From Candidatus Muiribacterium halophilum (GTDB lineage Bacteria > Muiribacteriota > Muiribacteriia > Muiribacteriales > Muiribacteriaceae), in assembly GCA_023228995.1 (NCBI GenBank), contig JALOAD010000015.1, positions 2,737 through 66,736 of the forward strand: a stretch of 64,000 bases of DNA. Direction: 5' to 3'. Position 1 is the stretch's first letter; every line of letters begins with the position of its first letter. The position numbers and the translations under genes were made by a program. The notes below the pieces were generated by a model. That model was not told the origin of the DNA, made no database searches, and was given only the letters and a program-made list of their open reading frames with translations. Shown here piece after piece: positions 4,739-53,795 of the stretch.

Positions 4739-6039
4739 ATATGTACGATCTTATTACAAAAAAAAGAGATGGTGGAACTCATTCTCAAGAAGAGATCAGC
4801 CATATTATTAAAGGATATATTGAAAACAAAATTCCTGATTATCAAATAAGTGCTTGGCTTATGGCAGTGTATTTTTCTGGAATGACTGATGAAGAAGCTG
4901 CAAATCTTACTATGACAATGGCAGAATCAGGTGATATGATGGATCTTAGAGCAATTAAAGGGGCAAAAGTCGATAAACATTCAAGTGGTGGTGTTGGAGA
5001 TAAAACTACTCTTGTACTTGGTCCGATTGTTGCATGTTGTGGCGTAAAAGTTGCAAAAATGTCTGGAAGAGGTCTTGGTCATACTGGCGGAACTCTTGAT
5101 AAACTTGAAGCAATCCCTGGGTTTAAGATAAATATCGATCCTAAATTGTTTTTTGATATTGTAAACACAACAGGTCTTGCAGTTGTTGGTCAGACAGGCA
5201 ATCTTGCTCCTGCTGATAAAAAAATATATGCATTAAGAGATGTTACAGCGACAGTTGACTCTATACCTCTTATTGCAGCTAGTATAATGGGTAAAAAACT
5301 TGCAGCAGGCAATGATGGAATAGTTCTTGATGTAAAATGCGGTAAAGGTGCTTTTATGACAAATCTTGCAGATGCAAAAAAACTTGCAAAATTAATGGTT
5401 GAAATAGGTAAAATAAAAGGTAAAAATATGTCTGCTGTTATATCAGCTATGGATCAACCTCTTGGAAGTAAAATAGGAAATGCTCTTGAAGTAGAAGAAG
5501 CTCTTGATACTCTTAAAGGTAAAGGTCCTGAAGATTTCACTCTTTTATGTATTGAACTTGCAGCAGAAATGCTTAAAGTTGGACATATTGGAAATTCAAA
5601 AGAAGAAAGAATTTCTCTAATTAAAGAAAAAATTTCTAATGGTGAAGCTTTAGAAAAATTCAGAGAAATGATTAAAGCCCAAGGTGGTAATTCTGATGTA
5701 GTTGATAATTATGAAATAATGGGTAAAGCTTCTCATATAATTGATTTTGTTTCAAAAAATTCCGGTTTTATAAGTGAAATCGATGCTCTTAAAGTTGGAA
5801 AAGCTGCTATGTTTCTTGGTGCAGGCCGTGCAACTAAAGAAGATAAAATAGACATGACAGTTGGTATAGAACTTTTCAAAAAAATCGGTGATAAAGTGCA
5901 AAAAGACGAAATACTTGGTAAAATATTCTATAATAGTGATAAAAAACTTGAAGAAGCAAAAAAAATGCTTATGTCAGCATATAAATTTGAAGAAATTAAA
6001 GAAAAATCTCCAGTACTTATATATGACATTATTCATTAG
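4735..6039 (+). CDS. pdp: Pyrimidine-nucleoside phosphorylase
   Basis: DKHSSGGVGDK, KMSGRGLGHTGGTLDKLE, DKKIYALRDVTATV, SIMGKKLA. Confidence 0.95.
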   Translation: MNMYDLITKKRDGGTHSQEEISHIIKGYIENKIPDYQISAWLMAVYFSGMTDEEAANLTMTMAESGDMMDLRAIKGAKVDKHSSGGVGDKTTLVLGPIVACCGVKVAKMSGRGLGHTGGTLDKLEAIPGFKINIDPKLFFDIVNTTGLAVVGQTGNLAPADKKIYALRDVTATVDSIPLIAASIMGKKLAAGNDGIVLDVKCGKGAFMTNLADAKKLAKLMVEIGKIKGKNMSAVISAMDQPLGSKIGNALEVEEALDTLKGKGPEDFTLLCIELAAEMLKVGHIGNSKEERISLIKEKISNGEALEKFREMIKAQGGNSDVVDNYEIMGKASHIIDFVSKNSGFISEIDALKVGKAAMFLGAGRATKEDKIDMTVGIELFKKIGDKVQKDEILGKIFYNSDKKLEEAKKMLMSAYKFEEIKEKSPVLIYDIIH

Positions 6040-18406: not shown

Positions 18407-20398
18407 TTACTCTCCAAATACAAGGAATCTTTCAATGATATTATTGTCAGTTATTTTCTTTTTACCAGTACCATCAGAGTCCATTACCCATATTTCATCA
18501 TTGCCTTCTCTGTCAGAAACAAAAAATACTTTTGTACCATCTGTTGAAAAACATGGATATCTATTATCATAACTATCATCTGTTAATTTTATCACTATAC
18601 CTGTAATAAGTTCAAGCTTATAAATATTTCCTTTTCCACCACTTCCTTTTCTGAAAAAGACAAGGTATTTCCCATCTTTTGAAAACTTTGGATAATAATC
18701 ATCTTTACCGCTTGACACATTATGCGGAATTAAATTTAAAGCATTTACTATTTTTCCGTATTCATCAAGATCAGCAACATAAAGTTCGTATTCTGCTATT
18801 GAATTTCTATTTGACACAAAAGCAATCTTTCTAGTATCAGCAGTTATGATAACATCAGGAAACTTTATACTTTTACCTTCAAACGATAATTCTTCTCTTT
18901 TTTCTGAACCTGAAGATGACATTGAATAGAGTGAATTTCCATAAATATAATAAACTCTTCCTTCCTGACTCTCAACAGGATAAAATTCATCTCGATTTAT
19001 AAACTCAGAATTTTCAGTCTGAGTTATTCTCACTTTATTTGCTCCATTCTTATCCATAACATAAAGGTCATAATTACCAGAACTATCTTTATCTGATGCA
19101 AAAAACACACCAGAATAATCTGCTGTAGTTTCTGGACAAGTAGATACATAAGAACTTTCAGTTAACATTGTTGTAGCACCTGACTGAGTATTTAATCTGT
19201 ATATTACACTATCTCCTTCATAATATAAAAATCCATCAGCTACTCCACCAACAGTATCTCCGACTCCAGGATCATCTCCACCACCTTCTCCAGCATCTAT
19301 ATTTATCCTCGCAGCAATACTAACACTTTTTGTATCACTAGCAAAAAAATCAAAAACATAACTATTTCCTGTTATTGGCATAAAAGTCATTTTAGAAATC
19401 GGATTTTGACCGGTTAAATCTTCTGAAATATTCATTATGACATCTGGACCAGATACTTGTTCCCATGAATAAGTTAATCTTGTACCAGTTGTAAGATCAT
19501 AATCTATTCCATATCCTTCTATTGTAACATTACTACCACCGGCAACTTTAATATAACCATCATTTACACCATCATTTTCTTTAATATAAGCAACTGGCCT
19601 AAAATTAGTATGAGTAATATCTGTAGAAACATAAACATTAAAACTATCCATACCAATTCCACCCATATTATCAACCATTTTAATATTTACTTTATGAATT
19701 CCAGGAGTATTGAAATAATCTTTTCTATTTGAACATACATATCTTGTTTTAAAAACATCATGTAAATCCCAAATCATATCATTGTTAAAATCAAGATAAA
19801 CATCAGTAATCTTTCCATTCATATCAGGATCATAACTTTTTTCTGTATATATTTTTATATAATCATTTGAATAAGTGTAAGTATAAACATCAGGTCCAGC
19901 ATCTACAATAGGAAATCTATTTTTTATTGTTGTTCTATCCTGAGAATCTATTTCTATAACTTCATTTTTTGCATCACCAAATAATTTAATTCTATAAAGT
20001 TTCACATCATTTTCACGAAAATTAAGGTATAATCTGCCATATTCATAAGTTAAAGTATTATTTTTGAATGTAATTGCCCTGAATCCAAGAATATTTCTAT
20101 CTGAAGTTTCTATTTTAAAATAACCTGAAGAATCGGTAACTGTACTTATTGAAGTCCCGTCAACAACTACTTTTACACCCGCTAACGGAGTTTCACCACT
20201 AACTGGTGCTATTGAACTGCTTTTTAAAACAGGAGAACTGTTCAAAGAAGAACTTTTAAATGCATAACCTTCAATTTTTGAGTAAAAAGTAGCTGAACTC
20301 ATAACTGAAAAATCATCTTTACCGCTTGAATCGCAACCAGTAAGAACAAAAAATAATAATGCTATAATCAAAATGCTATATAAAAAAAAATTACGCAT
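18407..20398 (-). CDS. Lipoprotein with Ig/PKD-like domains and C-terminal TolB-like (PD40) beta-propeller
   Basis: Lipobox VLTGC, TVTDSSGYF, PIVDAGPD, YSWEQVSGP, PKFSKDGK, PCFSTDGTKVFFVSDREG. Confidence 0.75.
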   Translation of the reverse strand: MRNFFLYSILIIALLFFVLTGCDSSGKDDFSVMSSATFYSKIEGYAFKSSSLNSSPVLKSSSIAPVSGETPLAGVKVVVDGTSISTVTDSSGYFKIETSDRNILGFRAITFKNNTLTYEYGRLYLNFRENDVKLYRIKLFGDAKNEVIEIDSQDRTTIKNRFPIVDAGPDVYTYTYSNDYIKIYTEKSYDPDMNGKITDVYLDFNNDMIWDLHDVFKTRYVCSNRKDYFNTPGIHKVNIKMVDNMGGIGMDSFNVYVSTDITHTNFRPVAYIKENDGVNDGYIKVAGGSNVTIEGYGIDYDLTTGTRLTYSWEQVSGPDVIMNISEDLTGQNPISKMTFMPITGNSYVFDFFASDTKSVSIAARINIDAGEGGGDDPGVGDTVGGVADGFLYYEGDSVIYRLNTQSGATTMLTESSYVSTCPETTADYSGVFFASDKDSSGNYDLYVMDKNGANKVRITQTENSEFINRDEFYPVESQEGRVYYIYGNSLYSMSSSGSEKREELSFEGKSIKFPDVIITADTRKIAFVSNRNSIAEYELYVADLDEYGKIVNALNLIPHNVSSGKDDYYPKFSKDGKYLVFFRKGSGGKGNIYKLELITGIVIKLTDDSYDNRYPCFSTDGTKVFFVSDREGNDEIWVMDSDGTGKKKITDNNIIERFLVFGE

Positions 20399-20459: not shown

Positions 20460-20851
20460 GAATTATAGAAAAAACTGTGAAGCTGTGACAGATAAAGCGT
20501 GACATGTCACTTTGTGACATTAGTGACAAAAACAAAGTCATGCCGGGATGACAGGTTTTTAATTTCCAATGTCGAATGTTGAATGTCGAATTTTTAGAGG
20601 CGTTAGAAAATTTTCAATTAAAATAAAGTATGAAGGATTTTCTATAAACAAAAGCAAAAAAAAATCTACTCGGTAACTTGAGTGAACGTTGCGAAGCATA
20701 TAATATACGGATGTATTATAAGTGAACGAAGGTAAAGAGATATTTTATATGGATGTAAAATATCGAATGGTACCGAATGATTATTTTTTTGCGTTATTGT
20801 AATGAAAAAAATCAAAAACAGATCCCGGCTCAGAGTCATGCCGGGATGACA
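20460..20851. repeat. Mosaic hairpin repeat, copy A (module order M4-M3-M1-M2)
   Basis: About 270 bp in four modules nearly identical to 52756-53245; REP/dRS3-like GTCATGCCGGGATGAC at 20537 and 20835. Confidence 0.85.
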
Positions 20852-20854
20852 GGT

Positions 20855-20950
20855 TTTTCCCATTTCCCAGTTTCATCCCGGTTTTATCCCTTCACTCTCT
20901 CGCTCTCACTCTCAACTCTTTAACCTTCTTTTAACCCTTTAACCTTCTTT
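20855..20950. repeat. Run of short tandem repeats (TTTCCCA, TTTYATCCC, CTCTCR, TTTAACC types)
   Basis: Read directly from the sequence just 3' of the PLD stop codon. Confidence 0.6.
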
Positions 20951-20954
20951 ATAT

Positions 20955-22613
20955 TCACTTAACTTCCCCTGGTGTTGGTGAATCATTAACAACCCAGTCA
21001 TTAAGTGAGTTTGTATCAATAAATTCTATTTTTTCAGAAGAACCAAAACCTGTTTTATTATATCTTCTCATTATACTAAAATTACCAGAAGGAACTGCTG
21101 TAGAATCAACACATTCTCTTTCATTCGGAGAATTCCACTCTTTTAAATTATAAACTACTCTTACATCTTCTTCTTCTCCAGGAGAAAAACTGCCATCATG
21201 ATTTGACCAACAAACAGCATCAAGTATTTTTCCGCTACCTTTTGCTTTAAAAATAATTTGCTCATCAGTTGATACAAACGCAGTTTTTTCTGCAAAAACA
21301 TAAAGTTTTTTATTATCAGCTTTTTTAAAGTCTTTATACCAACCCTGTGCTACTACAATAAAATCACCAGTCTTTACAATTGTATCGTCTCCAAACATCT
21401 TAACAAGACCATCGTCTTCAATGTAATATCCGCCAATATCTATACCATTACCATTATTTGCATCGTCAGCACAATATATTTCTACCCAATCACCACTTGG
21501 ATCGTTAAAAACAACTTCAGATATATAAAATGTAGGTTCTTTAATATCAATTTGAGGAATTTCAACAACACTTCCATTTTCAGAATCAAATCCATCACCA
21601 TAACATTTAGCAACTTCATAATAATATTTCATTGCTATTTCATTATTATTTTTTAACACAACAGTACTTTCATCATTTACTTTACCAGCAGCTGATGTCC
21701 AGTTATAAGAACCTGTTATTACAGTAGGATCACTATTTGTATTAGGATCTATAACCATAAATTTATGATGAAGAAAACCTTTATTAGTGTCTTTTTTTAC
21801 ATTAAGTCCAGCTTCTTTCATTGGCTTATAAGAGCTATAGCTAGAATTACCCTGGAAAGCATCAAAAACACCATATACTTTGACACCACGATTTCTTTTA
21901 TCAATTATAGCATTCATTATATCTTCATCAGTAAACGTAAATATACAAAAATAAATACTATGATGTGCATTTTGTATTTCATTAATAATAACGGATTTTA
22001 CATCCTGTTTAGGAGAAAAATAGTTTTTAACCTTAGTATCATCAACAATTATTTCAGGATGATCATAAGCTTCTTTTTTTATGCTAAATTTACCTTCATC
22101 AAACATTTGTTCGAATTCTTTTTTGTATATTTTTGCCATAATTGGAGAATCAAATTTAAGAGCATTATTATTATTTGAATAAGTACCTTTAACAGTAACA
22201 TTATAAGAACCCATCCAAACATATCTATCATCAATTATTACAAATTTGTTATGGCATTGTCCTCTATCGATTCCATCACCCATTTTATCTGTCATTATTT
22301 TAATACCAGCATTTTTAATTGGTTCAAAAACTTCTTTATATTTATCTGTTTGAAAATAATGATCTTCGGTAATAAGTTTTACTTTTGACGAACCTAGTCT
22401 TTCTGATCCTCTAACAAGCGCATTTACAATATCCATATTACCCATTTGATATAAATGTGCATAAATATAATACTCTGCACTATCTATAAGCTTTATAAGT
22501 TCAACATCAATTCCTCCACTTTCTGGCGGATTATTAAAATAACTATTTATCTTTGCAGCAAAAGTAAATACCACACATAATATTATTACTAAGATTACCA
22601 TGCTTTTTTTCAT
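20955..22613 (-). CDS. Secreted phospholipase D/nuclease-family protein with lamin-tail domain
   Basis: Signal peptide; two HKD motifs (HNKFVIID, HHKFMVID), GSYN twice; LTD motif YISEVVFN..DWVEIY. Confidence 0.85.
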   Translation of the reverse strand: MKKSMVILVIILCVVFTFAAKINSYFNNPPESGGIDVELIKLIDSAEYYIYAHLYQMGNMDIVNALVRGSERLGSSKVKLITEDHYFQTDKYKEVFEPIKNAGIKIMTDKMGDGIDRGQCHNKFVIIDDRYVWMGSYNVTVKGTYSNNNNALKFDSPIMAKIYKKEFEQMFDEGKFSIKKEAYDHPEIIVDDTKVKNYFSPKQDVKSVIINEIQNAHHSIYFCIFTFTDEDIMNAIIDKRNRGVKVYGVFDAFQGNSSYSSYKPMKEAGLNVKKDTNKGFLHHKFMVIDPNTNSDPTVITGSYNWTSAAGKVNDESTVVLKNNNEIAMKYYYEVAKCYGDGFDSENGSVVEIPQIDIKEPTFYISEVVFNDPSGDWVEIYCADDANNGNGIDIGGYYIEDDGLVKMFGDDTIVKTGDFIVVAQGWYKDFKKADNKKLYVFAEKTAFVSTDEQIIFKAKGSGKILDAVCWSNHDGSFSPGEEEDVRVVYNLKEWNSPNERECVDSTAVPSGNFSIMRRYNKTGFGSSEKIEFIDTNSLNDWVVNDSPTPGEVK

Positions 22614-37154: not shown

Positions 37155-37233
37155 TAATTATTCATTATTTATTCTTAATTTTTCATTATTCATTATTAAT
37201 TATTAATTTTTCATTTTTCATTTTTCATTATTT
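37155..37233. repeat. Degenerate heptamer tandem repeats (TTCATTA/TTCATTT)
   Basis: Read directly, immediately 3' of the pilC stop codon. Confidence 0.55.
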
Positions 37234-37237
37234 ATCA

Positions 37238-38440
37238 CTAACCAGCCTGATTAATCATTTCAAGCATAGGCATAAATATAGCAAGTACTATTCCCCCAAT
37301 AACAACACCCATGAATACAATAACAATCGGCTCAATTATAGAAGTAAGTCCTTTTACCGCTGTATCAACTTCCTGATCATAAAAATCAGCAACTTTACTT
37401 AACATTACATCAAGTTCACCTGTTTCTTCACCAACTGCTATCATCTGAATAACCATTGGAGGAAACACTGCACTTTGTTTAAGAGGTTCAGATATACTTT
37501 CCCCTTCTTTAATAGATACTCTTGTTTTAAGAACAGCTTCTGTAATAATTACATTGCCAGCTGTATTTGCTGTAACCTCAAGAGCTTGAAGTATAGGAAC
37601 ACCGGCTGATATCAATGTACCTAATGTTCTTGTAAACTTAGATACAGCAACTTTTCTTAGTAAATTACCAATACCTGGTAATACAAGAGAATAAGTATCA
37701 AGAAGTCTTCTCCCTTGTTTAGTATCAAAGAATTTTTTTACACCCCATATTCCAAAACCAATTCCAATTATAATAATTATAAAATATTTCTGGAAAAAAG
37801 ATGAAAGTCCTAATAATATCCTAGTTGGAAGCGGTAATGTTGCATCTCCCATACCTTCGAATATTTGCTGGAAATTCGGAAGTACAAAAGTTATAAGAAA
37901 TATAACAACAAGTATTGCAACTGAAAATACAACTGCTGGATATGTCAAAGCACCTTTTACTTTTGCTTTAAGCTGTTCTGAACTTTCTAGATAATTTGCC
38001 AATCTTTCAAGAATCTGATCAAGAATACCACCAGCTTCACCAGCTCTAACTAAATCGCAAAATAAAACACTAAAAACCAAAGGATGTCGTCCTAAAGCTG
38101 ATGAGAATGTAGAACCTGATTCAACATCATTTCTAACTTGAATCACTATTTCTCTAAAAGCTGGGTTTTCAACTTGATCTTCCATAATATTAAGACATCT
38201 TACAAGATTAACTCCTGATCCTATCATTGTCGCAAACTGTCTTGCAAAAATTGATACTTCAGAAGTTTTAACCTTTTTTTTAAAAAAAGTCATTTCTTTG
38301 CTTTTCTCTTTTAGAGGGCCAACGATAAAATATCCTTTTTCTTTTAACTTCGCAATAGCCATATCTTTACTAGAACTATCAATTTCTCCAGTAAGAGTTT
38401 TTCCATCACGGGTCTTGACCTTGTAAGTATATTTTGGCAT
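37238..38440 (-). CDS. pilC: Type IV pilus platform protein PilC (T2SS F family)
   Basis: FARQFATMIGSG, AGEAGGILD, ALTYP, MIAVGEETGELD, IEPIVI. Confidence 0.95.
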   Translation of the reverse strand: MPKYTYKVKTRDGKTLTGEIDSSSKDMAIAKLKEKGYFIVGPLKEKSKEMTFFKKKVKTSEVSIFARQFATMIGSGVNLVRCLNIMEDQVENPAFREIVIQVRNDVESGSTFSSALGRHPLVFSVLFCDLVRAGEAGGILDQILERLANYLESSEQLKAKVKGALTYPAVVFSVAILVVIFLITFVLPNFQQIFEGMGDATLPLPTRILLGLSSFFQKYFIIIIIGIGFGIWGVKKFFDTKQGRRLLDTYSLVLPGIGNLLRKVAVSKFTRTLGTLISAGVPILQALEVTANTAGNVIITEAVLKTRVSIKEGESISEPLKQSAVFPPMVIQMIAVGEETGELDVMLSKVADFYDQEVDTAVKGLTSIIEPIVIVFMGVVIGGIVLAIFMPMLEMINQAG

Positions 38441-43778: not shown

Positions 43779-44570
43779 ATGAAAGTAGGATATATTCAAA
43801 ACAACCCTGAATTTGGAAATATTAAAAAAAATGTAGACAATATCTATAATAAACTTGAAAATATAAATAACACCCTTATAGTACTTCCTGAATTATTTGC
43901 TAGCGGTTACAATTTTACCGACATTTCAGAAGTAAAAGCATTAAGTTCACAAAAAGATAAAGGTTATATATGGGAAGCTCTTTCTCATATATCAAAAAAA
44001 AATAACATTACAATTGTATATGGTTTTGCTGAAAAAGATATAGATAAATTCTTCAATTCATGTAATATAATAGAAAAAGGAAAATTATTATCAACATACA
44101 GAAAATCTCATCTTTTTTATAAAGAAAAATTATTTTTTTCCAAAGGAGATTCACTTCTTGAACCTGTTAAATTATCTAACGGTGTAAATATTGGCCTTAT
44201 GATATGTTTTGACTGGATATTTCCTGAAACTGCAAGAACTCTCGCTCTTAATGGTGCTCATATTATAGCCCACTGTACAAATCTTGTTCTTCCGTTTTGT
44301 CCTGATGCAACTATTACAAGATGTATTGAAAACAAAGTCTTCACAATACTTTCAAATAGAATAGGAAATGAAAACAGAGGAAATAATAATCATACATTTA
44401 TAGGATTAAGCGAAATAGTCAATCCAAACGGAAGTATAATAAACAGGTCATCAAAAGACAAAGAAGATTTATTTGTAACCGAAATAAATCCTTTTGAAGC
44501 TGAAAACAAAGAAATCAATAATTTTAATAATTTATTTGAAGATAGAAGAACTGATTTGTATTTTGAATAA
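43779..44570 (+). CDS. Carbon-nitrogen hydrolase (nitrilase/amidase family)
   Basis: Glu-Lys-Cys triad motifs LPELF, YRKSHLF, MICFDWIFPE. Confidence 0.9.
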   Translation: MKVGYIQNNPEFGNIKKNVDNIYNKLENINNTLIVLPELFASGYNFTDISEVKALSSQKDKGYIWEALSHISKKNNITIVYGFAEKDIDKFFNSCNIIEKGKLLSTYRKSHLFYKEKLFFSKGDSLLEPVKLSNGVNIGLMICFDWIFPETARTLALNGAHIIAHCTNLVLPFCPDATITRCIENKVFTILSNRIGNENRGNNNHTFIGLSEIVNPNGSIINRSSKDKEDLFVTEINPFEAENKEINNFNNLFEDRRTDLYFE

Positions 44571-44733
44571 GAGTTAAATAGCGAGATGGTGAAGTGGTGA
44601 AATAGTTAAAGCTTTAAATCCATTTCGCTAATCAAAATATTCAGTGAATATTTTGTTTTATGTTCATTGAACATTTTGACCTTTAACCCTTTAACCCTTT
44701 AACTATTTAACCCTTTAACTATTTAACTATTTT
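44571..44733. repeat. Hairpin cluster and octamer repeats between convergent genes (probable bidirectional terminator)
   Basis: TAGCGAGATGG/CCATTTCGCTA, CAAAATATTCA-G-TGAATATTTTG, ATGTTCA-T-TGAACAT, then (TTTAACCC/TTTAACTA)n. Confidence 0.7.
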
Positions 44734-47700
44734 TATTGCTTTTATCGCTTCACTTAAATCATTTAGAGTAAAAGGTTTATTTACAATTGAAGAAAAGCCA
44801 TATTTTCTATAATTTTCAGCAATATCGTTTTGTGAATAACCACTTGCTACAATAACTTTTATATTTTTATCAATATGCAATAATTCTTTCATAGTCTCAA
44901 CACCACCAAGACCACCTTTTATAGTAAGATCCATTACAGCAAAATCAAATCTTAAACCAGCTTTATATTTTGCAATAAGTTCCTCTCCTTTTTCACATTC
45001 TTCAACCTCATAACCAAGCTCTTCAAGCATATATTTTATAACTTCTCTTACATCCTGTTCATCATCCATTACAACAACTCTTCCCTTGCCTTTGACAAGA
45101 ATTTCATTTTCATAATTTTTTTCTTTTATAATCCCCTCAATTACAGCTGGAAGAAATATATCAAATCTTGTTCCTTGATTTTTTTCAGAAAAAACTTCAA
45201 TAAATCCTTCATGATTTTTTACAATTGCAAGAACTGATGCAAGACCTAATCCTGTACCTTCTTTTTTGGTTGTAAAATAAGGATCAAATATTCTTGAAAT
45301 ATCATTTTTTTCAATTCCATTTCCAGTATCTTTTACTGATATTTTAACAAAATTTCCCGATTTCCCACCTTCATTAAAAAGCGCCTGATTTGTAGCTCCA
45401 AGATATACATTTCCTCCATCTAACATAGCTTGACAAGAATTAATAATCACATTATTTATCACCTGTTTTATCTTTCCGATATCTGCTTCAATATTCCATA
45501 ATTTATCTTCTATATCAAGTACAAGCCTATTATTTGTACCTCTAATTGAAAACTCAGCTGTATCTTTTATTGCTTTTTTAAGATTTATAAGTTCTTTGTT
45601 AGGAGTTTCTCTCTTTGCAAAAGTAAGAAGCTGCATTGTAAGTTCCTTTGCATTCATACATGCATTTTCAGCATTTTTTAAATGTTGATATATTTTTTCA
45701 TTTTTATTGAAATTTTTTTCAACAATTGAAATATTTCCTAAAACACTTGTTAAAATATTGTTAAAATCATGAGCTATTCCTGCGGCAAAAAGTCCAATTG
45801 ATTCAAGTTTTTGAAGATTAATCATTTCTTCTTCTATCTTTTTTTCAACCCTTATATCTCTAAAAGCAATTACTGCACCATTTACTTTACCTAAATTGTT
45901 AAATGTAGGTGCGATATTCATATAAATTGGGATATTTTCTGGACCTATTGTAATATTTTTAATTATTTTGTTATTTTTTTCTGTAGTAACAACTTTTAAA
46001 ATAGGATTATACTCATTATTATTTAATTTTATATTGCATATACTTATGTTTTTCCCTATTGAAACATCACCTTTGGATTTTATAATATTTTGTGCAATTT
46101 TATTTATTAAGAGAATATTTCCTTTTTTATCAGTATTTATAACTCCCTCTTCTATTGAATTTATTGTAACAATTATTCTTTCTTGTTCTTCATAAAGTTC
46201 TCTTTCCATTCTTCGCTCTTCTGTAATATCAACTCCTATAAATATTATATTGTCATTATCAATAGGAGAAAGCATTATCAAAAGTTGTTTATCATAATTA
46301 TTATCATAAGGAGTGAATAATATTTCTCTTATAAATATTTTCCCAGATAATATTTTATCTTTTACATGCTGAATCTCATTTTTATCTAAATTTTTCCAGA
46401 AAGTAAAAAGATCAATATCAGAAAAATCATTTTGTGAAAGTCCTGAAACCCAAGAAAACTTTCTATTCATCTCAAGAAACCTGAATTTTTTATCAAGAAG
46501 ACCAATCATATTTGGAGAATTTTCAAAAAGAGTTCTGTATTTTTTCTCAGAACCGATAACTGATCTTATATATGAATATTCCTTTCTCAAAAAATCAAAT
46601 AAAATTAAAAGAATAACAAAAAGTATAATTATAAATATATAACTAAAATTTCTATAATTTGTAACAAGAGAATTATTAGCAAGAAAAATAACTTTCCAAT
46701 TAGCATATTTCAAATTTGCTTCTTCCATATAATAAGTGAAACCATTTAATTTAACATTTTTATGATTTATTTGTGAAAATAAACTTGTATTTTTTAAACC
46801 TTCAAACTGTCTTGAATCAACAATATTATTAAAATCATATTCATCTAACTCTTTAATAACTTTTAGAACATATTCTTTATTATTACTCATAAGTATTACA
46901 CCTAAATCATTTACAATAAAAATAGGATTTTCATCAGGAATTATACTTTCAACTATATCAAGATTTTTTTTAATAACAGCAACTCCCTTTATTTCACCAT
47001 CTTTCTTAAAAGGAAAACTTGTATAAAAACCTCGTTCATTTGTTGTAATTCCAACAGCAAAGTAGTATGTAATAATACCTTCCATAGCTGTTTTAAAATA
47101 ATTTCTAAAACTATAATTATAACCTAAAATTGATGTTGTAGAATCTCGATTTGAAGACACAACAGTATTCCCATTTTTATCCATAACATAAACTACAGAA
47201 GCTTTAAGAATATCAAAATACCTATCAACAATAATATTACTTTTTAAATAATCCTCTTGCTTTTTTTCATCAAGATAATCAAAAATAATATCTTCTTCCG
47301 CAAGAAGTCTAACTCCTTTCATATAAATCTCGAGATTATCATTTAATACTTTTGATATTTCACGACTTTTAAATTTTGCATCTTTAATAAGAATGTTTTC
47401 AGCAATATTCTCAGATATATTTATAATAAAAACAGATATAATAATCAATATTACAATGCTGGATAAAAAAGATATCCATATTATCTTTTTATTGAAAACA
47501 TTATCTTTTTTATTATAAATTTTTTGTAAAATATATAAAAAAACTCCTAAAGAAATAAATAATAAACTATATAACGATATAACTGATATATCTACAATTA
47601 ATCTTAATGTTGACGCTAAAGCAATTAACAAAAAAAATAAATATATATTTTTTTCAGGATTTTTTTTATTTATCTTTTTCATAAAAAACGGAATACTTGA

Positions 47701-49849: not shown

Positions 49850-50827
49850 TCAAATAAAAAATTCATTTATTCTTTTGATTTCTTCATGGATTTCATTGTC
49901 TTTAGGCTTTCGTGGAAAATTATACCAATCACCAGTAACTTTTTCATTATAAAAAGGTCTATTACAACCTTCGCAACCACTTGTTCTAAAAAACTCTCCA
50001 TCCCCAAGAATTCCTGGAATTTTTTTATAATTTACTTTTTTTACAAAATTATTTTCATCAAAAACAATATCATTAAATTCAATTTCTTTTTTCTTTAAAA
50101 GATAAAATATAGCCTGACATAATCTATAATATTTAATATCAGGGGATTTTTTTTCCTCTAAATATCCTTTCTTTTTAATAGGAGTATAAGCAAAAAGACT
50201 TACATTAATTTGTTTTAAAAGAAAAGAGTTTATTAACGAGAAAAGTTCATAACTAGTCTCACCTAAACCAATAATCAAATGAGCAGATATTCTATCTGGA
50301 AATTTTTCAACAGATTCATATAAAAACTCAATATTTTTTTTAAAATTTTTATGTTTTATAAAGAAAAATTCTTTTTCTGAAGCTACATCTATTGCAATAC
50401 CAATTCTATTAACACCACATTCAATAAACTTATACATAAGTTCTGGATAATTCATAAGATCTATAGAAACATTTATATTTATATTAAATTTAATATTATC
50501 TCTTAAATATTTAATAATATTTAATGTCATAATTGAGGTTTTCTCAGATTTTGTAACTTGAATGCATATATTTTTAAATTTATAACCTTTTTTATTAAAA
50601 GCTTGAACAAAAGTATAAATATCGAATTCAGGCCACATTACTCTTGAAAGCCTTGTTTCGCCTTCAGATTGAGAACAAAACTCACAATTATTATTACATT
50701 TATCACCAAACATTAAATAAGCAGTAGTTGGATCAACAAGATTTTTAACCCTATTCAAACCAAGAACAGCTCCAGTTCCCTGAGATATTTTTATTTTATA
50801 AAACACAACATTCATAACTATACTCAA
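49850..50827 (-). CDS. lipS2: Radical SAM protein, LipS2-type lipoyl synthase subunit
   Basis: CNNNCEFCSQ (CxxxCxxC), LSRVMWP, HLIIGLGET, FAYTP, C-terminal TSGCEGCNRPFYNE. Confidence 0.7.
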   Translation of the reverse strand: MSIVMNVVFYKIKISQGTGAVLGLNRVKNLVDPTTAYLMFGDKCNNNCEFCSQSEGETRLSRVMWPEFDIYTFVQAFNKKGYKFKNICIQVTKSEKTSIMTLNIIKYLRDNIKFNININVSIDLMNYPELMYKFIECGVNRIGIAIDVASEKEFFFIKHKNFKKNIEFLYESVEKFPDRISAHLIIGLGETSYELFSLINSFLLKQINVSLFAYTPIKKKGYLEEKKSPDIKYYRLCQAIFYLLKKKEIEFNDIVFDENNFVKKVNYKKIPGILGDGEFFRTSGCEGCNRPFYNEKVTGDWYNFPRKPKDNEIHEEIKRINEFFI

Positions 50828-51593
50828 TTAAAAATTTATTTTCTAAAGCATATTTTTCAGCTTCTTTTGAAGGCATTACAATTTTATCAACACCAAGCTT
50901 TAAAGCTTCAATATCAAGCTTTCTTCTATAAATCCCACCAGGTCTCATACAACCAAGAGAAACATTTTTAATTTTACTTTTTCCATACTTTATAATATCA
51001 AGAACATCTTCAATATTAGGCGATTTAAATAATGCAAAATCAGTATTTTTATTTACTATAAGAACTAAAAAAACAATTTCATCAAATCTTTCAGATAAAT
51101 AATCAATAGCTTGTTTTTCACCTAAAATTTCACCTTCATTCACTCCAATCATAACATGAGGAACAACTCTTATTTTATTTTTTAAAAAATTATCAATAGA
51201 ATGAGTAAAATCCTTTTGAGTAAAAAAATCACCATATATTCTTTTGATTGTTTCTTTATGAATTAAAAAATCAAAAGATACGCAATCTGCAATTTCTTTA
51301 AGCTTAATAAAATCAGAATTGTTTTTTATTATACCTGTATGAATATTTAATTTGATATTTTTATTTTTTAAATCTAAAAGTTCATTAAAATGTTCTATAA
51401 AAGGAACACAACCTTTATCGTTCATACCACCGCTTACAAGTATAGAAGAATATTTATCATTTTTTATATCACTAATTTTTTTCATATTTATAAGATAATG
51501 TTTATTACAATAAGGACAATTAAGAAAACAATTTTTATTAGTAAGAGATATTGAAATAGTTTGTGAAGGTTTTACAAATTTAATATTATTCAC
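50796..51593 (-). CDS. lipS1: Radical SAM protein, LipS1-type lipoyl synthase subunit
   Basis: CFLNCPYC, LVSGG, NIHTG, VPHVMIG, LGCMRP and terminal ECC; GTG at 51593 overlapping the BMC stop is the likely start (ORF track 51680). Confidence 0.7.
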   Translation of the reverse strand: MNNIKFVKPSQTISISLTNKNCFLNCPYCNKHYLINMKKISDIKNDKYSSILVSGGMNDKGCVPFIEHFNELLDLKNKNIKLNIHTGIIKNNSDFIKLKEIADCVSFDFLIHKETIKRIYGDFFTQKDFTHSIDNFLKNKIRVVPHVMIGVNEGEILGEKQAIDYLSERFDEIVFLVLIVNKNTDFALFKSPNIEDVLDIIKYGKSKIKNVSLGCMRPGGIYRRKLDIEALKLGVDKIVMPSKEAEKYALENKFLIEYSYECCVL

Positions 51594-52401
51594 GTCTGTC
51601 TGGACATTCAAGATCATCACAGAGTGCACATATGTAATTACAATCTTTTCTTTTTTCTTTTTCTTTTTCCTTCTTAACACCTACAACTTCTTGAGATTTT
51701 TTCATTTCATTTTTTGTTTGATTTTTTATTTCAACAATTACTGCTTTAGGTTTTTCTTTTATTTCTTCTTCTTCTTTTTCTTCTTTTTTTTCTTCTTCTT
51801 CTTGTTTTTCAATAAAATCACTATAAACATTTTTATATTCTTCATTTATATCAGATAAATTCTCATCTTTTATAATATTCGGAATTTCTATATTTTCTTC
51901 AATTATTTTTATATCTTCATCTTTTACAAATTCCAGATTATCAATTGTTTCTTCTCTTGCCGCTTCTTCTCTTGCCGCTTCTTCTTTCACAGTTTCTTCT
52001 CTCACAGTTTCTTCTCTCACAGCTTCTTCTTTCACAGCTTCTTCTTTCACAGCTTCTTCTTTCACAGCTTCTTCTCTCACAGCTTCTTCTCTCACAGCTT
52101 TTTTTCTCACCGGAGCATATTGACTTCCCATGTATTTTTCACCATTTATAATACCAATTAGCTGAGAATCAGGTTTAGCAATAACATGACTTGAAATAAG
52201 AGTATTATATTTTGTTGCTACTTCAATACCACATTGTATAGATGATTGAACCGCACCAACATCACCTTCAATCTTTATAGTTACACAACCAAAATTTGCT
52301 TCATAATTTAATAATTTAACATCTGCTGCTTTAAGGCAAGCATCTAAAGTTTCTATAGAACTTGAAAAACCCTTTATCTCAATCATTCCCAAAGCTTTCA
52401 T
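51586..52401 (-). CDS. BMC-H shell protein with repetitive acidic linker and Cys-rich C-terminus (PduK-like)
   Basis: ALGMIEIKG..DACLKAADV..IEGDVGAVQSS..SHVIAKP; tail CNYICALCDDLECP. Confidence 0.85.
   Translation of the reverse strand: MKALGMIEIKGFSSSIETLDACLKAADVKLLNYEANFGCVTIKIEGDVGAVQSSIQCGIEVATKYNTLISSHVIAKPDSQLIGIINGEKYMGSQYAPVRKKAVREEAVREEAVKEEAVKEEAVKEEAVREETVREETVKEEAAREEAAREETIDNLEFVKDEDIKIIEENIEIPNIIKDENLSDINEEYKNVYSDFIEKQEEEEKKEEKEEEEIKEKPKAVIVEIKNQTKNEMKKSQEVVGVKKEKEKEKRKDCNYICALCDDLECPDRRE
51946..52110 (-). repeat. 15-bp coding tandem repeat (about 11 units, EE[A/T][V/A][K/R])
   Basis: cacagcttcttct(c/t)t units read directly. Confidence 0.95.
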
Positions 52402-52410
52402 GAAAAAAAC

Positions 52411-52686
52411 CTACCCTGTTATATTAAATTCGTTGTATTTACCCGTACTATTATAATACTGAACACTTACTTTTTCAACATTTGAATGTACCGACCCCTT
52501 TTTTACCGACTCAATAAACATTTTAACCTGCACATCATTTCCTTCACAGCAAATTGTAACAGATCTATCAGGATTATTTCTTACAAAACCAGTCAAGCTT
52601 AGATTTTTTGCTATATTATAAACAAAATGTCTAAATCCAACTCCTTGAACTTTTCCTCTAACAGTAATTTGAGCAGCTTTTGGCAT
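52411..52686 (-). CDS. acyP: Acylphosphatase
   Basis: VRGKVQGVGFR, LTGFVRNNPDRSV, GS. Confidence 0.95.
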   Translation of the reverse strand: MPKAAQITVRGKVQGVGFRHFVYNIAKNLSLTGFVRNNPDRSVTICCEGNDVQVKMFIESVKKGSVHSNVEKVSVQYYNSTGKYNEFNITG

Positions 52687-52718
52687 ATTATTTACCTCTC
52701 AGTAAATCATAAAATTAA

Positions 52719-52747
52719 ATACTACAACACATCGAAGAAATAGACAA
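52719..52747 (-). promoter_or_regulatory. Sigma70-like promoter TTGTCT-17-TAGTAT for the acyP-BMC-lipS operon
   Basis: Minus-strand TTGTCT 52742-52747 and TAGTAT 52719-52724. Confidence 0.5.
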
Positions 52748-52755
52748 GAATTTAT

Positions 52756-53271
52756 AAAAAAATCTACTCGATAACTTGAGTGAACGTTGCGAAGCATATA
52801 ATATACGGATGTATTATAAGTGAACGAAGGTAACAGAGGCTGTTGAAAAACTAAAAAGAAGAAACATTGATGCAGAATAGGGTCTGTGCCGATCTCAAAT
52901 TTTAGCTTACATAGGTCGGCCTGACCATGCTGTTTGATTTTAAAGTTAAGTTTAAAAAAAAGAAAACCTGTTTTTTTCAACAGCCTCTAAAATACCGAAT
53001 GATTATTTTTTTGCGTTATTGTAATGATAAAAAAATCAAAAACAGATCCCGGCTCAGAATCATGCCGGGATGACATTTTCTCAGAATAGTACCGGAATGA
53101 CATTTTCTCAGAATAGTACCGGAATGACAGGTTTTTAATTTCCAATGTCGAATTAAAAGAAAAAACTTTGAAGCTGTGACAGATAAAGCGTGACATGTCA
53201 CTTTGTGACATTAGTAACAAAAACAAAGTCATGCCGGGATGACAGTTTCTCAGAATCATGCATGGATGACA
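52756..53271. repeat. Mosaic hairpin repeat, copy B (M1-MITE-M2-27mers-M3-M4-27mer)
   Basis: Modules nearly identical to 20460-20851; 27-bp units CTCAGAAT(CATG/AGTA)CCGGRATGACATTTT at 53053, 53080, 53107 and 53249. Confidence 0.85.
52835..52988. mobile_element. 154-bp MITE-like element with perfect 16-bp terminal inverted repeats
   Basis: AGAGGCTGTTGAAAAA (52835-52850) / TTTTTCAACAGCCTCT (52973-52988); absent from copy A; no ORF and no clear target duplication. Confidence 0.7.
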
Positions 53272-53313
53272 TTATATTAATTTTTTGTTTATTTAATCAT
53301 AGAACTCTATTAT

Positions 53314-53341
53314 TAATCTTTTCAATTTTATTTGCCGATAA
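53314..53341 (+). promoter_or_regulatory. Putative sigma28 (FliA/SigD) promoter of flgBC
   Basis: Perfect -10 GCCGATAA at 53334-53341; imperfect -35 TAAT 16 nt upstream. Confidence 0.55.
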
Positions 53342-53375: not shown

Positions 53376-53795
53376 ATGATTTCAAGACTAGAGTCAGCAA
53401 AAACTTTAAGACTTCTTGAACAAGGACTTGATTGTGCTTCTTTTAGACATAGAATAATCTCAAACAATATCGCAAATGTTGATACTCCAGGGTTTAAAAT
53501 ATCTGGTGTAAAGTTTGAAGATAAATTAAGAAAAGTTTTAAACGATGATGGTATAAAAGGAGTCAGAACTCACGCAAATCACATGCCTGTTGGACTTCCA
53601 CAATATAATGAAGTTATTCCACAAAAAATCATGTTCACAGATACTAATTATAGAAACGATAAAAACAATGTTGATATTGATGTTGAAATGGCAAAAATGA
53701 GTAAAAACTCTATTTATTATGAAGCATGTATAACAAGAACAAATAGTTTTTTCACTAATCTTGATGAAGCTATAACTAAAGGCGGAGGTAGATAA
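53376..53795 (+). CDS. flgB: Flagellar basal-body rod protein FlgB
   Basis: RHRIISNNIANVDTPGFK, RNDKNNVDIDVEM; ATG 53376 after GAGAGGA (ORF-track extension is translated repeat). Confidence 0.95.
   Translation: MISRLESAKTLRLLEQGLDCASFRHRIISNNIANVDTPGFKISGVKFEDKLRKVLNDDGIKGVRTHANHMPVGLPQYNEVIPQKIMFTDTNYRNDKNNVDIDVEMAKMSKNSIYYEACITRTNSFFTNLDEAITKGGGR

Follow-up and report, generated by a model that had tools for sequence, protein, structure and literature searches.

Hairpin-rich intergenic arrays of an uncultured landfill bacterium follow one cyclic module series and are probably a selfish mosaic of REP-type hairpins and MITE-like palindromes

The window analysed here is a stretch of 64,000 nucleotides from Candidatus Muiribacterium halophilum (contig JALOAD010000015.1, assembly GCA_023228995.1), and the subject is a family of non-coding intergenic arrays, hosted by an uncultured flagellated bacterium of landfill leachate with a GC content of 26–27%, of which the window holds two members, copy A and copy B. 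The neighbours of copy A are a Tricorn-like 663-aa gene (18407–20398, minus strand) and a phospholipase-D-family (PLD) gene (20955–22613, minus strand), those of copy B an acylphosphatase gene (52411–52686, minus strand) and flgB (53376–53795, plus strand). The first-pass annotation had recognised four shared modules at these two places, and by direct reading and repeat search all four pairs are real: M4 (20467–20557 equals 53158–53248 at 97%, or 99 nt at 95% when taken from 20460), M3 (20543–20577 equals 53119–53153, 97%), M1 (20658–20735 equals 52756–52833, 78 nt with one mismatch) and M2 (20771–20851 equals 52993–53075, 96.4% over 83 columns with a 2-nt indel plus substitutions). The recurrence of the modules, at 95–99% identity and in one orientation, is far beyond chance, and their order is likewise as described, M4-M3-M1-M2 for copy A versus M1-M2-M3-M4 for copy B. 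M2 and M4 do share their end, the 16-mer GTCATGCCGGGATGAC occurring exactly at 20537, 20835 and 53228 and with one mismatch at 53059; with up to three mismatches allowed it matches nine times in the window, versus 0.01 expected from shuffles. Comparison with contigs and loci retrieved from metagenomes, metagenome-assembled genomes (MAGs) and species genomes (labelled L plus a number below) resolves the two orders into two phases of one cyclic series, and points to selfish DNA built from a repetitive extragenic palindromic (REP) hairpin and palindromes resembling miniature inverted-repeat transposable elements (MITEs).

The repeated DNA is larger than first described, reaching from 20460 to 20858 and from 52756 to 53319 according to BLAST depth against 36 other loci of the same population. 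Copy A opens with the AT-rich module M4c (20460–20536, plus strand), which contains five GTGACA/TGTCAC words including the palindrome GTGACATGTCAC, numbers 17 copies across the loci sampled and does not fold significantly. It is followed by HPr (20537–20554, plus strand), a half REP in which the left arm is missing and the loop's 3' part, right arm and GACA tag (GTCATGCCGGGATGACAG) are kept, and by the M3 linker (20552–20600, plus strand), which stands after the hairpin block and carries the heptamer AATGTCG 3.4 times at 20568–20591. The spacer spA (20601–20653, plus strand; 26 copies) has a weak hairpin formed by TAGAAAAT (20604–20611) and ATTTTCTA (20637–20644), with a z score of −1.5, where z scores throughout compare predicted folding with that of shuffled sequences. 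The E1 core (20654–20792, plus strand) is a 139-nt MITE-like palindrome made up of M1, the hpA hairpin (20736–20770) and the 5' part of M2. The 3' part of M2L (20793–20821, plus strand) is an A-rich run equivalent to the T-run after the hairpin on the minus strand, and it leads into the full REP hairpin, HP (20822–20851, minus strand). The low-complexity tailA (20852–20954, plus strand), with TTTAACC-type words and decayed arm-like GGGAT words, reaches the stop of the PLD gene and is essentially single-copy (one copy in the module census). Word arrays like those of tailA (TTTAACC/CCTTTAAC, period 8, six copies) also occur in a third intergenic region of the window (44570–44735), which additionally holds the palindrome AAAATATTCAGTGAATATTTT, a near copy of which adjoins M4c in L004; this is a low-copy family (depth 1–7).

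Copy B begins at M1, the left part of the E1 core (52756–52833, plus strand), with no spA upstream, and in place of hpA it contains insB (52834–52992, plus strand), a 159-nt palindromic element. M2L (52993–53045, plus strand), comprising the right inverted repeat of E1 and the A-rich run, is followed by the full REP hairpin (53046–53075, minus strand), with ATCCCGGC at 53046–53053, the loop at 53054–53063, GCCGGGAT at 53064–53071 and the GACA tag. Two r27 units (TTTTCTCAGAATAGTACCGGAATGACA; 53076–53129, plus strand) are tandem half-hairpins starting inside the loop, and Tandem Repeats Finder reports the repeat (53053–53129) with a period of 27, 2.9 copies and 92% matches. After the M3 linker (53127–53157, plus strand) come M4c and its half REP (53158–53245, plus strand, with HPr at 53228–53245) and, on the basis of the depth profile and recurrent right ends, a segment (53246–53319, plus strand) composed of a degenerate r27 (to 53272) and the right-terminal module RT (TTATATTAATTTTTTGTTTATTTAATCATAGAACTC..., ~53272–53319). 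RT (TTATATTGATTTTTGTTTATTTAATCAGAAGACTC) closes many arrays after the last GGGATGACA. Not every module is a hairpin: folding is significantly better than that of shuffles for HP, for the palindrome M1-hpA-M2 and for insB (z −3.4, −4.0 and −4.7, respectively), and not for M4 (z −1.4) or spA. Three minus-strand open reading frames (ORFs) inside repeat modules, at 20666–20863 (65 codons), 52699–52980 (93 codons) and 52987–53259 (90 codons), are almost certainly spurious and would recur many times across the genome annotation.

On the minus strand HP reads cTGTC-ATCCCGGC-ATGACTCTGA-GCCGGGAT-CTG, that is, a tag, an 8-bp stem and a 10-nt loop, followed by T5-N3-T7; its fold energy, computed as DNA, is −8.8 kcal/mol, and the full hairpin has a GC content of 60% versus 26.6% for the window. 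Both r27 and HPr are half hairpins of the same composition (3' part of the loop, right arm and GACA tag, no left arm), and in ~384 kb of population DNA 53 full hairpins compare with 77 half sites, all intergenic, r27 following 38 of the 53. What stands directly 3' of ...GGGATGACA belongs to a few recurring classes (r27 67, M3 28, RT 11 and other 24 among 130 hairpin-type arms), which bears out the earlier observation that module junctions lie at the palindrome.

E1 is bounded by imperfect 22-nt inverted repeats, GCAAAAAAAAATCTACTCGGTA at the 5' end of M1 and TACCGAATGATTATTTTTTTGC in the 5' part of M2, which enclose two inner hairpins. In 22 aligned copies it is more than 98% identical and its conservation starts and stops at the inverted repeats; spA, the A-run and the hairpin region vary, and conservation between spA and HP amounts to at least 90%. 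Folding of the complete unit is good on either strand (z −3.2 and −3.9), with one compensatory pair among 45 predicted pairs, the copies being too alike for a test of covariation. Decayed and truncated copies also exist. The ends of insB are 16-nt inverted repeats (AGAGGCTGTTGAAAAA), with a further inverted repeat inside (GGTCTGTGCCGA / AGGTCGGCCTGACC); 15 copies were found, with hpA replaced in 11 units and two copies free-standing (L200, L208), a possible GTAAC target duplication being present at one free copy only. In size, terminal inverted repeats (TIRs) and copy number both E1 (139 nt, 46 copies) and insB (159 nt, 15 copies) have the properties of MITEs. Rfam 15 gave no match at gathering score in the 64 kb and only chance-level matches at E up to 5 at both loci, a tRNA/tmRNA search found none, and promoter and terminator scans gave counts not above those of shuffles, the loop limit of the scan leaving out a 10-nt loop.

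These modules are not confined to the two copies in the window. The M1 core pattern is found at 36 loci in JGI landfill metagenomes, with ~41 exact copies on 24 contigs that total 1.31 Mb and reach 154 kb. The source samples are landfill metagenomes of Southern Ontario (JGI 3300015214 / Ga0172382 and Ga0265293, ENA ERZ27247346 and ERZ27247376, SRR8449813). A BLAST census with the module library over 276 kb plus the window (~340 kb) counted HP 49, M1 46, M2L 46, r27 38, HPr 36, hpA 36, spA 26, M4c 17, insB 15, M3 14 and tailA 1, establishing a large non-coding family of at least 40 copies. The contigs come from the same population as the window: L203 and L087 are 99.8% identical over 6.9 kb, and L194 and L079 are 99.6% identical. 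All copies are intergenic, with no orientation bias of the arrays relative to flanking genes (neighbours divergent 7, convergent 5, co-directional 5). Neither M1 nor M4 nor the 399-nt array was found in viral contigs, plasmids or phages, and among 185,579 species genomes the M1 core occurs on a single 5.5-kb contig, L004 (JALOAF010000039.1), which is identical to the JGI contig L214. L004 belongs to a MAG labelled Candidatus Absconditabacterales and has long table-11 ORFs (lysS, STAS); the label is doubtful because the ORFs of L004 and of the window read through under table 11, and L004 is probably mis-binned. As a taxonomic marker, IF-2 reached a best identity of ~50% (Bacteroidota, Ignavibacteria, Dehalococcoidia) and gave no placement. 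One array (L195:5736–6065, spA-M1-insB-M2L) lies between dnaA (minus) and yidC (plus), the expected site of a replication origin. Radical-SAM/SPASM genes often adjoin arrays (L079, L087, L202, L203, L213, with three around one array pair; in the window, 49850–50827), which may reflect only the abundance of such genes in the genome.

When 54 clusters were written as strings of modules oriented on M1, one collinear tandem series emerged: spA-M1-(hpA or insB)-M2L-HP-(r27)n-M3-[M4c-HPr-(r27)n-M3]-spA-M1 and so on. This order describes 51 of the 54 clusters, the three exceptions containing an inverted module, and each locus holds ~0.5–2.5 copies of the collinear unit. The string in L203 is HP r27 M3 spA M1 hpA M2L HP r27 r27 M3 spA M1 hpA M2L HP r27 M3 M4c HPr, within which a 354-nt unit occurs twice, perfectly and in tandem. 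Strings like it are found in L212 and L217, and L198, L209 and L200 share the order M4c (HPr) spA M1 hpA M2L HP M3 M4c. At the locus of copy A itself, L087 has M4-M3-spA-M1-hpA-M2-HP-r27-r27-M3-M4, so that past the hairpin it continues r27-r27-M3-M4-HPr. Given one repeating series and the L087 string, copies A and B are therefore two phases of the same cycle, copy A being cut as M4...HP and copy B as M1...M4-RT, and no shuffling is needed to explain the permutation in the window. The proposal that cassettes are shuffled is not supported, the modules having a single relative order and orientation across the 54 clusters, three exceptions apart, and M3, which had been seen as the exchange point, is the normal linker behind a hairpin block.

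Independent assemblies allow the individual junctions to be judged. Copy B is reproduced base for base in L083 (GCA_023230945.1, JALNWI010000068), and L087 has the same internal order as copy A between M4 and the hairpin's end at 20851; the junction 20851/20852 to the PLD gene is joined differently elsewhere, three other assemblies disagreeing on the partner across the hairpin from tailA. In ERZ27247346 the PLD gene and the 663-aa gene are on two separate contigs. On L079 the series PLD-tailA-HP-M2L is joined directly to an 889-aa radical-SAM gene, departing from the window at 20766 (L079:11848), and this join is read-supported because the 86-nt repeat is shorter than the k of 141 used in the assembly. 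L081 and L082 have PLD-tailA-HP-M2L-hpA-M1, and L194 has the 889-aa gene followed by M2L-HP-M4c-spA-M1-hpA-M2L; these data fit an agreement of L194 with L081 and L082, with L079 as a one-unit contraction. L087 joins the 663-aa gene, via the array, to a 1312-aa radical-SAM gene (L087:9543), and L203 joins the same 1312-aa gene, via a longer array, to a different gene (L203:7376), L194 and L203 both being from JGI Ga0265293. Together, four assemblies pair the PLD gene, the 663-aa gene, the two large radical-SAM genes and a fifth gene differently across arrays. Between these assemblies of one population, at least 99.6% identical, the differences always fall at HP or M2 and concern the number of units (L087 versus L203, L079 versus L194) and the flanking partner. 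For the window junction 20851/20852 the choice is between a chimera and a real rearrangement or polymorphism, and the gene order around 20.85 kb is not trustworthy as assembled; contigs of this organism may be mis-joined or rearranged at arrays.

Enzymes that might act on the arrays were looked for beside them and in the surrounding population DNA. The 58 ORFs nearest to arrays, scanned against Pfam, are ordinary chromosomal genes (dnaA/yidC, ssb, mutS2, lytB, ABC transporters and radical-SAM genes are among them) and include no recombinase. A two-probe search of ~384 kb found one Y1 transposase gene (L200:4994–5983, minus strand); a second, weak match in L212 was rejected, having no Pfam domain. 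The L200 protein matches Y1_Tnp (PF01797, E 1.3e-14, 54.8 bits against a cutoff of 23) and scores 63 bits, below the cutoff of 80, against NF047646, the REP-associated tyrosine transposase (RAYT); it has the HUH (HYH) and YIHLNP motifs and a C-terminal DnaA_C-like helix-turn-helix (HTH). Its unit (L200:4601–6139) has 28-nt TIRs, TGGGGTCGGTCC[T/A]CTC[G/A]ATGTTTACAAA, with the left repeat duplicated (4602, 4773), and an insB copy lies inside it at 4789–4930. The word AGGTCGG occurs 14 times in the 384 kb (11 annotated insB, one partial insB-like copy in L202, one inner TIR copy and one elsewhere). The TIR of the Y1 gene (GGGGTCGGTCC) is not dispersed in the population DNA, and HP and E1 are not found at the gene. 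These features suggest, with moderate confidence, that insB may be a TIR-derived, REPIN-like passenger of the L200 enzyme. A search of all fetched loci for a REPtron-like architecture, a gene between inverted hairpins, gave one match, a non-transposase ORF.

The hairpin itself has relatives far beyond this population. A search of the species-genome collection with the pattern GATCCCGGCT-N7-10-GCCGGGATGACA listed matches at no fewer than 95 loci; among the matches listed the hairpin is multi-copy in more than 12 phyla, with many copies in several genomes, and the sources include Shewanella, Nocardia, Aliiglaciecola, Elusimicrobiota, Latescibacterota, Ignavibacteria, Nitrospira, Chloroflexia, Rhodovibrionaceae, FCPU426, Acidimicrobiia and others. 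In these matches a perfectly complementary left arm accompanies 43 right arms with one substitution and 26 with two, and compensatory stem variants in other taxa include ATCCCCGC/GCGGGGAT, ATTCCGGC/GCCGGAAT and ACCCCGGC/GCCGGGGT. The loop is 10 nt in the window (TCAGAGTCAT / TCAGAATCAT) and 9–11 nt in relatives from other taxa, and the tail is CTG or CTC in the window and its population (GGGATCTG) and CCA or CCT in most relatives from other phyla (TGGATCCC, opposite strand). In the long-loop form (TGG)ATCCCGGC-N9-11-GCCGGGATGAC(A), the tag, the stem and part of the loop (TCARAAKCAT) are kept across more than 12 phyla. An exact 17-mer of the palindrome gave mostly chance matches in GC-rich genomes when sought in genome contigs and was informative only for L004, L054 and L060. 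In L054 (4677–5226; a contig binned as Gammaproteobacteria) tandem units of ~110 nt between two convergent genes alternate the HP-type hairpin with a second, CGTC-type hairpin (CGTCATACCCGCATGCCTCTAGCGGGTATCCAG), and in L060 (1–420; Ignavibacteriaceae) long degenerate arrays of heptamers (CAGTGAA/CAGTTAA... and TTCTAGA/TTCTTGA...) border the hairpin and resemble the short-word tails beside the window hairpin. The spurious peptide motifs WIPAFAGMT and VIPAKAGIQ probably derive from this hairpin; the literature, searched for the motif, yielded no mention of it.

The half sites, too, recur in many phyla. Tandem copies of the right half, made up of the loop's 3' part with the right arm and the GAC tag, follow a full hairpin in L155, L157, L121, L124, L160, L094, L116 and L123, in Shewanella, Aliiglaciecola, Chloroflexia and other genomes, and resemble r27 of the window; in one deltaproteobacterial locus (L156:7470–7515, CTCTGGATCCCGG four times) the left halves are iterated instead. 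We know of no prior description of half-hairpin iteration beside full hairpins. It is a rather doubtful idea that this cross-phylum pattern could be the footprint of a widespread enzyme that nicks or processes the hairpin in single-stranded DNA and builds the arrays here, as opposed to passive recombination; if true, the hairpin would be an orphan REP system, as was suspected for CGTC-tagged repeats by Di Nocera et al. (PMC3733652).

Among known systems the closest hairpin class is that of the CGTC-tagged REPs, which have a CGTC or TGTC/CCTC tag, an 8–9-bp stem starting with AT, a 4–5-nt loop (a few families have other loop lengths) and a CCA tail; Neisseria CGTC-1 is dRS3, the superfamily also covers Rickettsia RPE-4/-6, and the repeats cluster in mosaic intergenic regions interleaved with other repeats, with no dedicated transposase known (PMC3733652). 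HP shares with them an unpaired terminal tag (TGTC being an accepted variant), an 8-bp stem with AT first, high copy number, extragenic location, occurrence in many phyla and the lack of any transposase gene flanked by the repeats. The hairpins here are arranged head to tail with tandem half sites, unlike the predominantly head-to-head dimers of that class. The dRS3-like or REP-like architecture proposed in the first-pass annotation is accordingly sound as a class resemblance in tag and stem, and departs from the class in its 10-nt loop and, in this organism, in its CTG/CTC tail.

At the level of whole arrays a parallel is provided by NIMEs, the mosaic elements found between genes in Neisseria, in which dRS3 hairpins flank RS repeat families of 50–150 bp and the number of repeats varies between strains; a role of dRS3 as recombinase site was proposed by Bentley et al., and Nf phages insert at it (PMC1797815). 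The two systems have in common GC-rich hairpins that alternate with AT-richer modules of 20–270 nt, array repeat numbers that differ between assemblies or strains, embedded palindromic elements (Correia-like MITEs there, E1 and insB here) and a proposed role as recombination substrates. They differ in that dRS3 is ATTCCC-N8-GGGAAT and the hairpin here ATCCCGGC-N10-GCCGGGAT, which makes them members of the same hairpin class only, in that more than 100 RS families combine freely there versus a fixed cyclic order here, and in that the hosts are unrelated, as are the module sequences apart from the hairpin type; the arrays here are not linked with surface-antigen genes or DNA uptake. The BOX elements (boxA-boxBn-boxC) of Streptococcus pneumoniae and the bacterial interspersed mosaic elements (BIMEs) of E. 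coli are likewise modular, collinear, intergenic and hairpin-rich with a variable internal module (boxB there, r27 here); BOX has no REP hairpin, however, and in BIMEs the REPs alternate in orientation and bind integration host factor (IHF) and gyrase, whereas all hairpins within an array here point one way. Like Correia elements and other MITEs, E1 is short, has imperfect TIRs and occurs in many near-identical non-coding intergenic copies, but unlike them it lacks a detectable target-site duplication or parent insertion sequence (IS) and is nearly always tied to a downstream A-run and REP hairpin. For the enzyme, the comparison is with REPIN/RAYT and TIRYT/TIRtron systems (Bertels & Rainey 2011; PMC6006769), which resemble L200 in having one Y1 HUH gene whose product carries the HUH and YIHLNP motifs together with a DnaA_C-like HTH. 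The TIR consensus of TIRYT, or TnpA_REP subclass 2.1, is GGGGWSAS (PMC6006769); the L200 TIRs begin GGGGTCGG, and the dispersed palindromic doublet insB has the same GGTCGG core. The likeness stops at HP and E1, which are unlike the TIR, and the link of gene and repeat consists of one adjacency and a short core.

Taken together, these results make it probable (~0.72) that the arrays are a lineage-specific, selfish and non-autonomous intergenic mosaic of REP hairpins and MITE-like palindromes, similar in kind to NIMEs, which grows by recombination and spreads in trans. Such selfish DNA would have been assembled from the REP hairpin plus the MITE-like palindromes, and the arrays would grow, shrink and swap flanks through slippage and homologous or unequal recombination between copies of HP, half-HP and r27. 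Spread to new intergenic sites would occur in trans, with the L200 RAYT/TIRYT-type Y1 (HUH) transposase as a candidate for the insB module. Consequences for the host, such as a minus-strand terminator formed by the hairpin and T-run or hot spots of recombination, are likely but would be incidental. Several points weigh against this interpretation. The 10-nt loop and CTG/CTC tail differ from the 4–5-nt loop and CCA tail of CGTC REPs; at the ends of E1 a consistent target-site duplication was looked for and none was found, and the sampled DNA contains no parent IS; and the near-invariance of E1, which fits a recent burst, would equally fit purifying selection on a function. Mobility is inferred: no insertion polymorphism (an occupied versus an empty site) was seen among the fetched loci, which include no suitable pairs. 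The association of the Y1 enzyme with insB consists of an 8–9-nt common core and one adjacency, the TIR of its gene is unlike the HP hairpin, and nothing ties the enzyme to HP or E1. Finally, the differences between assemblies at junctions could be short-read chimeras across arrays of 350–900 nt.

The originally proposed recombinase encoded elsewhere is compatible with the data in so far as any enzyme must act in trans, none being encoded beside the copies; a dedicated site-specific recombinase is unneeded, and none was found. In its strong form, in which an IS110/Piv-like, Y1 or other recombinase cuts and rejoins hairpin-ended cassettes as in an integron or a dRS3-targeted system, this explanation would account for two unit types, X (spA-E1-M2L-HP) and Y (M4c-HPr), that both end in the hairpin motif and occur in several combinations (M3 followed by spA or M4c, M4c-HPr followed by M3 or RT), for junctions exactly after GGGATGACA, and for flanks swapped at HP and M2 between assemblies, and it has a precedent in the recombinase-site proposal for dRS3 and the integration of Nf phages (PMC1797815). 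We nevertheless consider it unlikely, with 51 of 54 clusters collinear and order and orientation thus essentially fixed, with variation that consists of copy number and optional modules explicable by homology-driven slippage, with no recombinase at the 58 flanks and no REPtron-like hairpin-flanked gene in 93 loci from other phyla, and with half sites lacking the left arm (77) outnumbering full hairpins (53), which is a better fit to tandem duplication.

Selection rather than selfishness would be at work if E1, perhaps with its M2 and HP flanks, were a functional multi-copy element, that is, a small RNA gene or a cis-regulatory promoter or terminator, with HP and the T-run as a minus-strand terminator. 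Identity above 98% over 22 copies with variable flanks and good folding on both strands would be expected of such an element; read on the minus strand, the HP stem leads into CTGTTTTTGATTTTTTT, and in copy A (PLD) and L004 (lysS) it lies just downstream of a gene; M2L also has weak sigma-70-like matches on that strand. Yet the promoter-like matches do not exceed shuffled expectation, Rfam has no match even at E up to 5, a single compensatory pair in 45 gives no covariation support, decayed and truncated copies are present, and the orientation to flanking genes is random; a functional role of this kind is improbable. HP with T5N3T7 has the form of an intrinsic terminator on the minus strand, and its orientation relative to neighbouring genes is random (17 versus 12). 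It is very improbable indeed that the repeat or its arrangement is a product of metagenome mis-assembly. The adjacency of the PLD and 663-aa genes on the two sides of an array in the window, where ERZ27247346 has two contigs with other partners (the 889-aa and 1312-aa radical-SAM genes) and JGI Ga0265293 yet others (L194, L203), would be expected of mis-assembly, as would the contigs that stop inside repeats (L080, L081, L082, L084–L086, L088). However, the modules are found in at least five independent assemblies (ENA twice, JGI twice, an NCBI MAG and Logan), inside contigs as long as 154 kb, L083 has an identical copy B and L087 an identical internal order of copy A, and the L079 junction beyond the 86-nt repeat is read-supported in a k = 141 assembly, which confines the doubt to the junction 20851/20852.

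Two further repeats of the window are separate from the array family. An AT-rich intergenic heptamer array (37157–37232), ATTATTC repeated 10.9 times with higher-order periods of 21, 28 and 35, lies upstream of a gene at 37238–38440 (minus strand), and weakly similar arrays occur in L206, L182 and L196. Adjoining copy B, a 15-nt tandem repeat (51949–52110; 10.8 copies, 92% matches) encodes a five-residue repeat inside a 271-codon ORF (51586–52401, minus strand), the protein of which has no Pfam domain.

Interpreted as a selfish mosaic, what appeared to be a shuffling system becomes a fairly ordinary modular family of selfish repeats. The CGTC-type REP hairpin is extended by it to an uncultured lineage of 26% GC and to many further phyla, and a recurrent half-hairpin "stutter" beside these hairpins is documented. 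With at least 40 arrays and polymorphic junctions, the family is a well-sampled case that can be used to study how REPs without a transposase spread, a question that dates from 2013.

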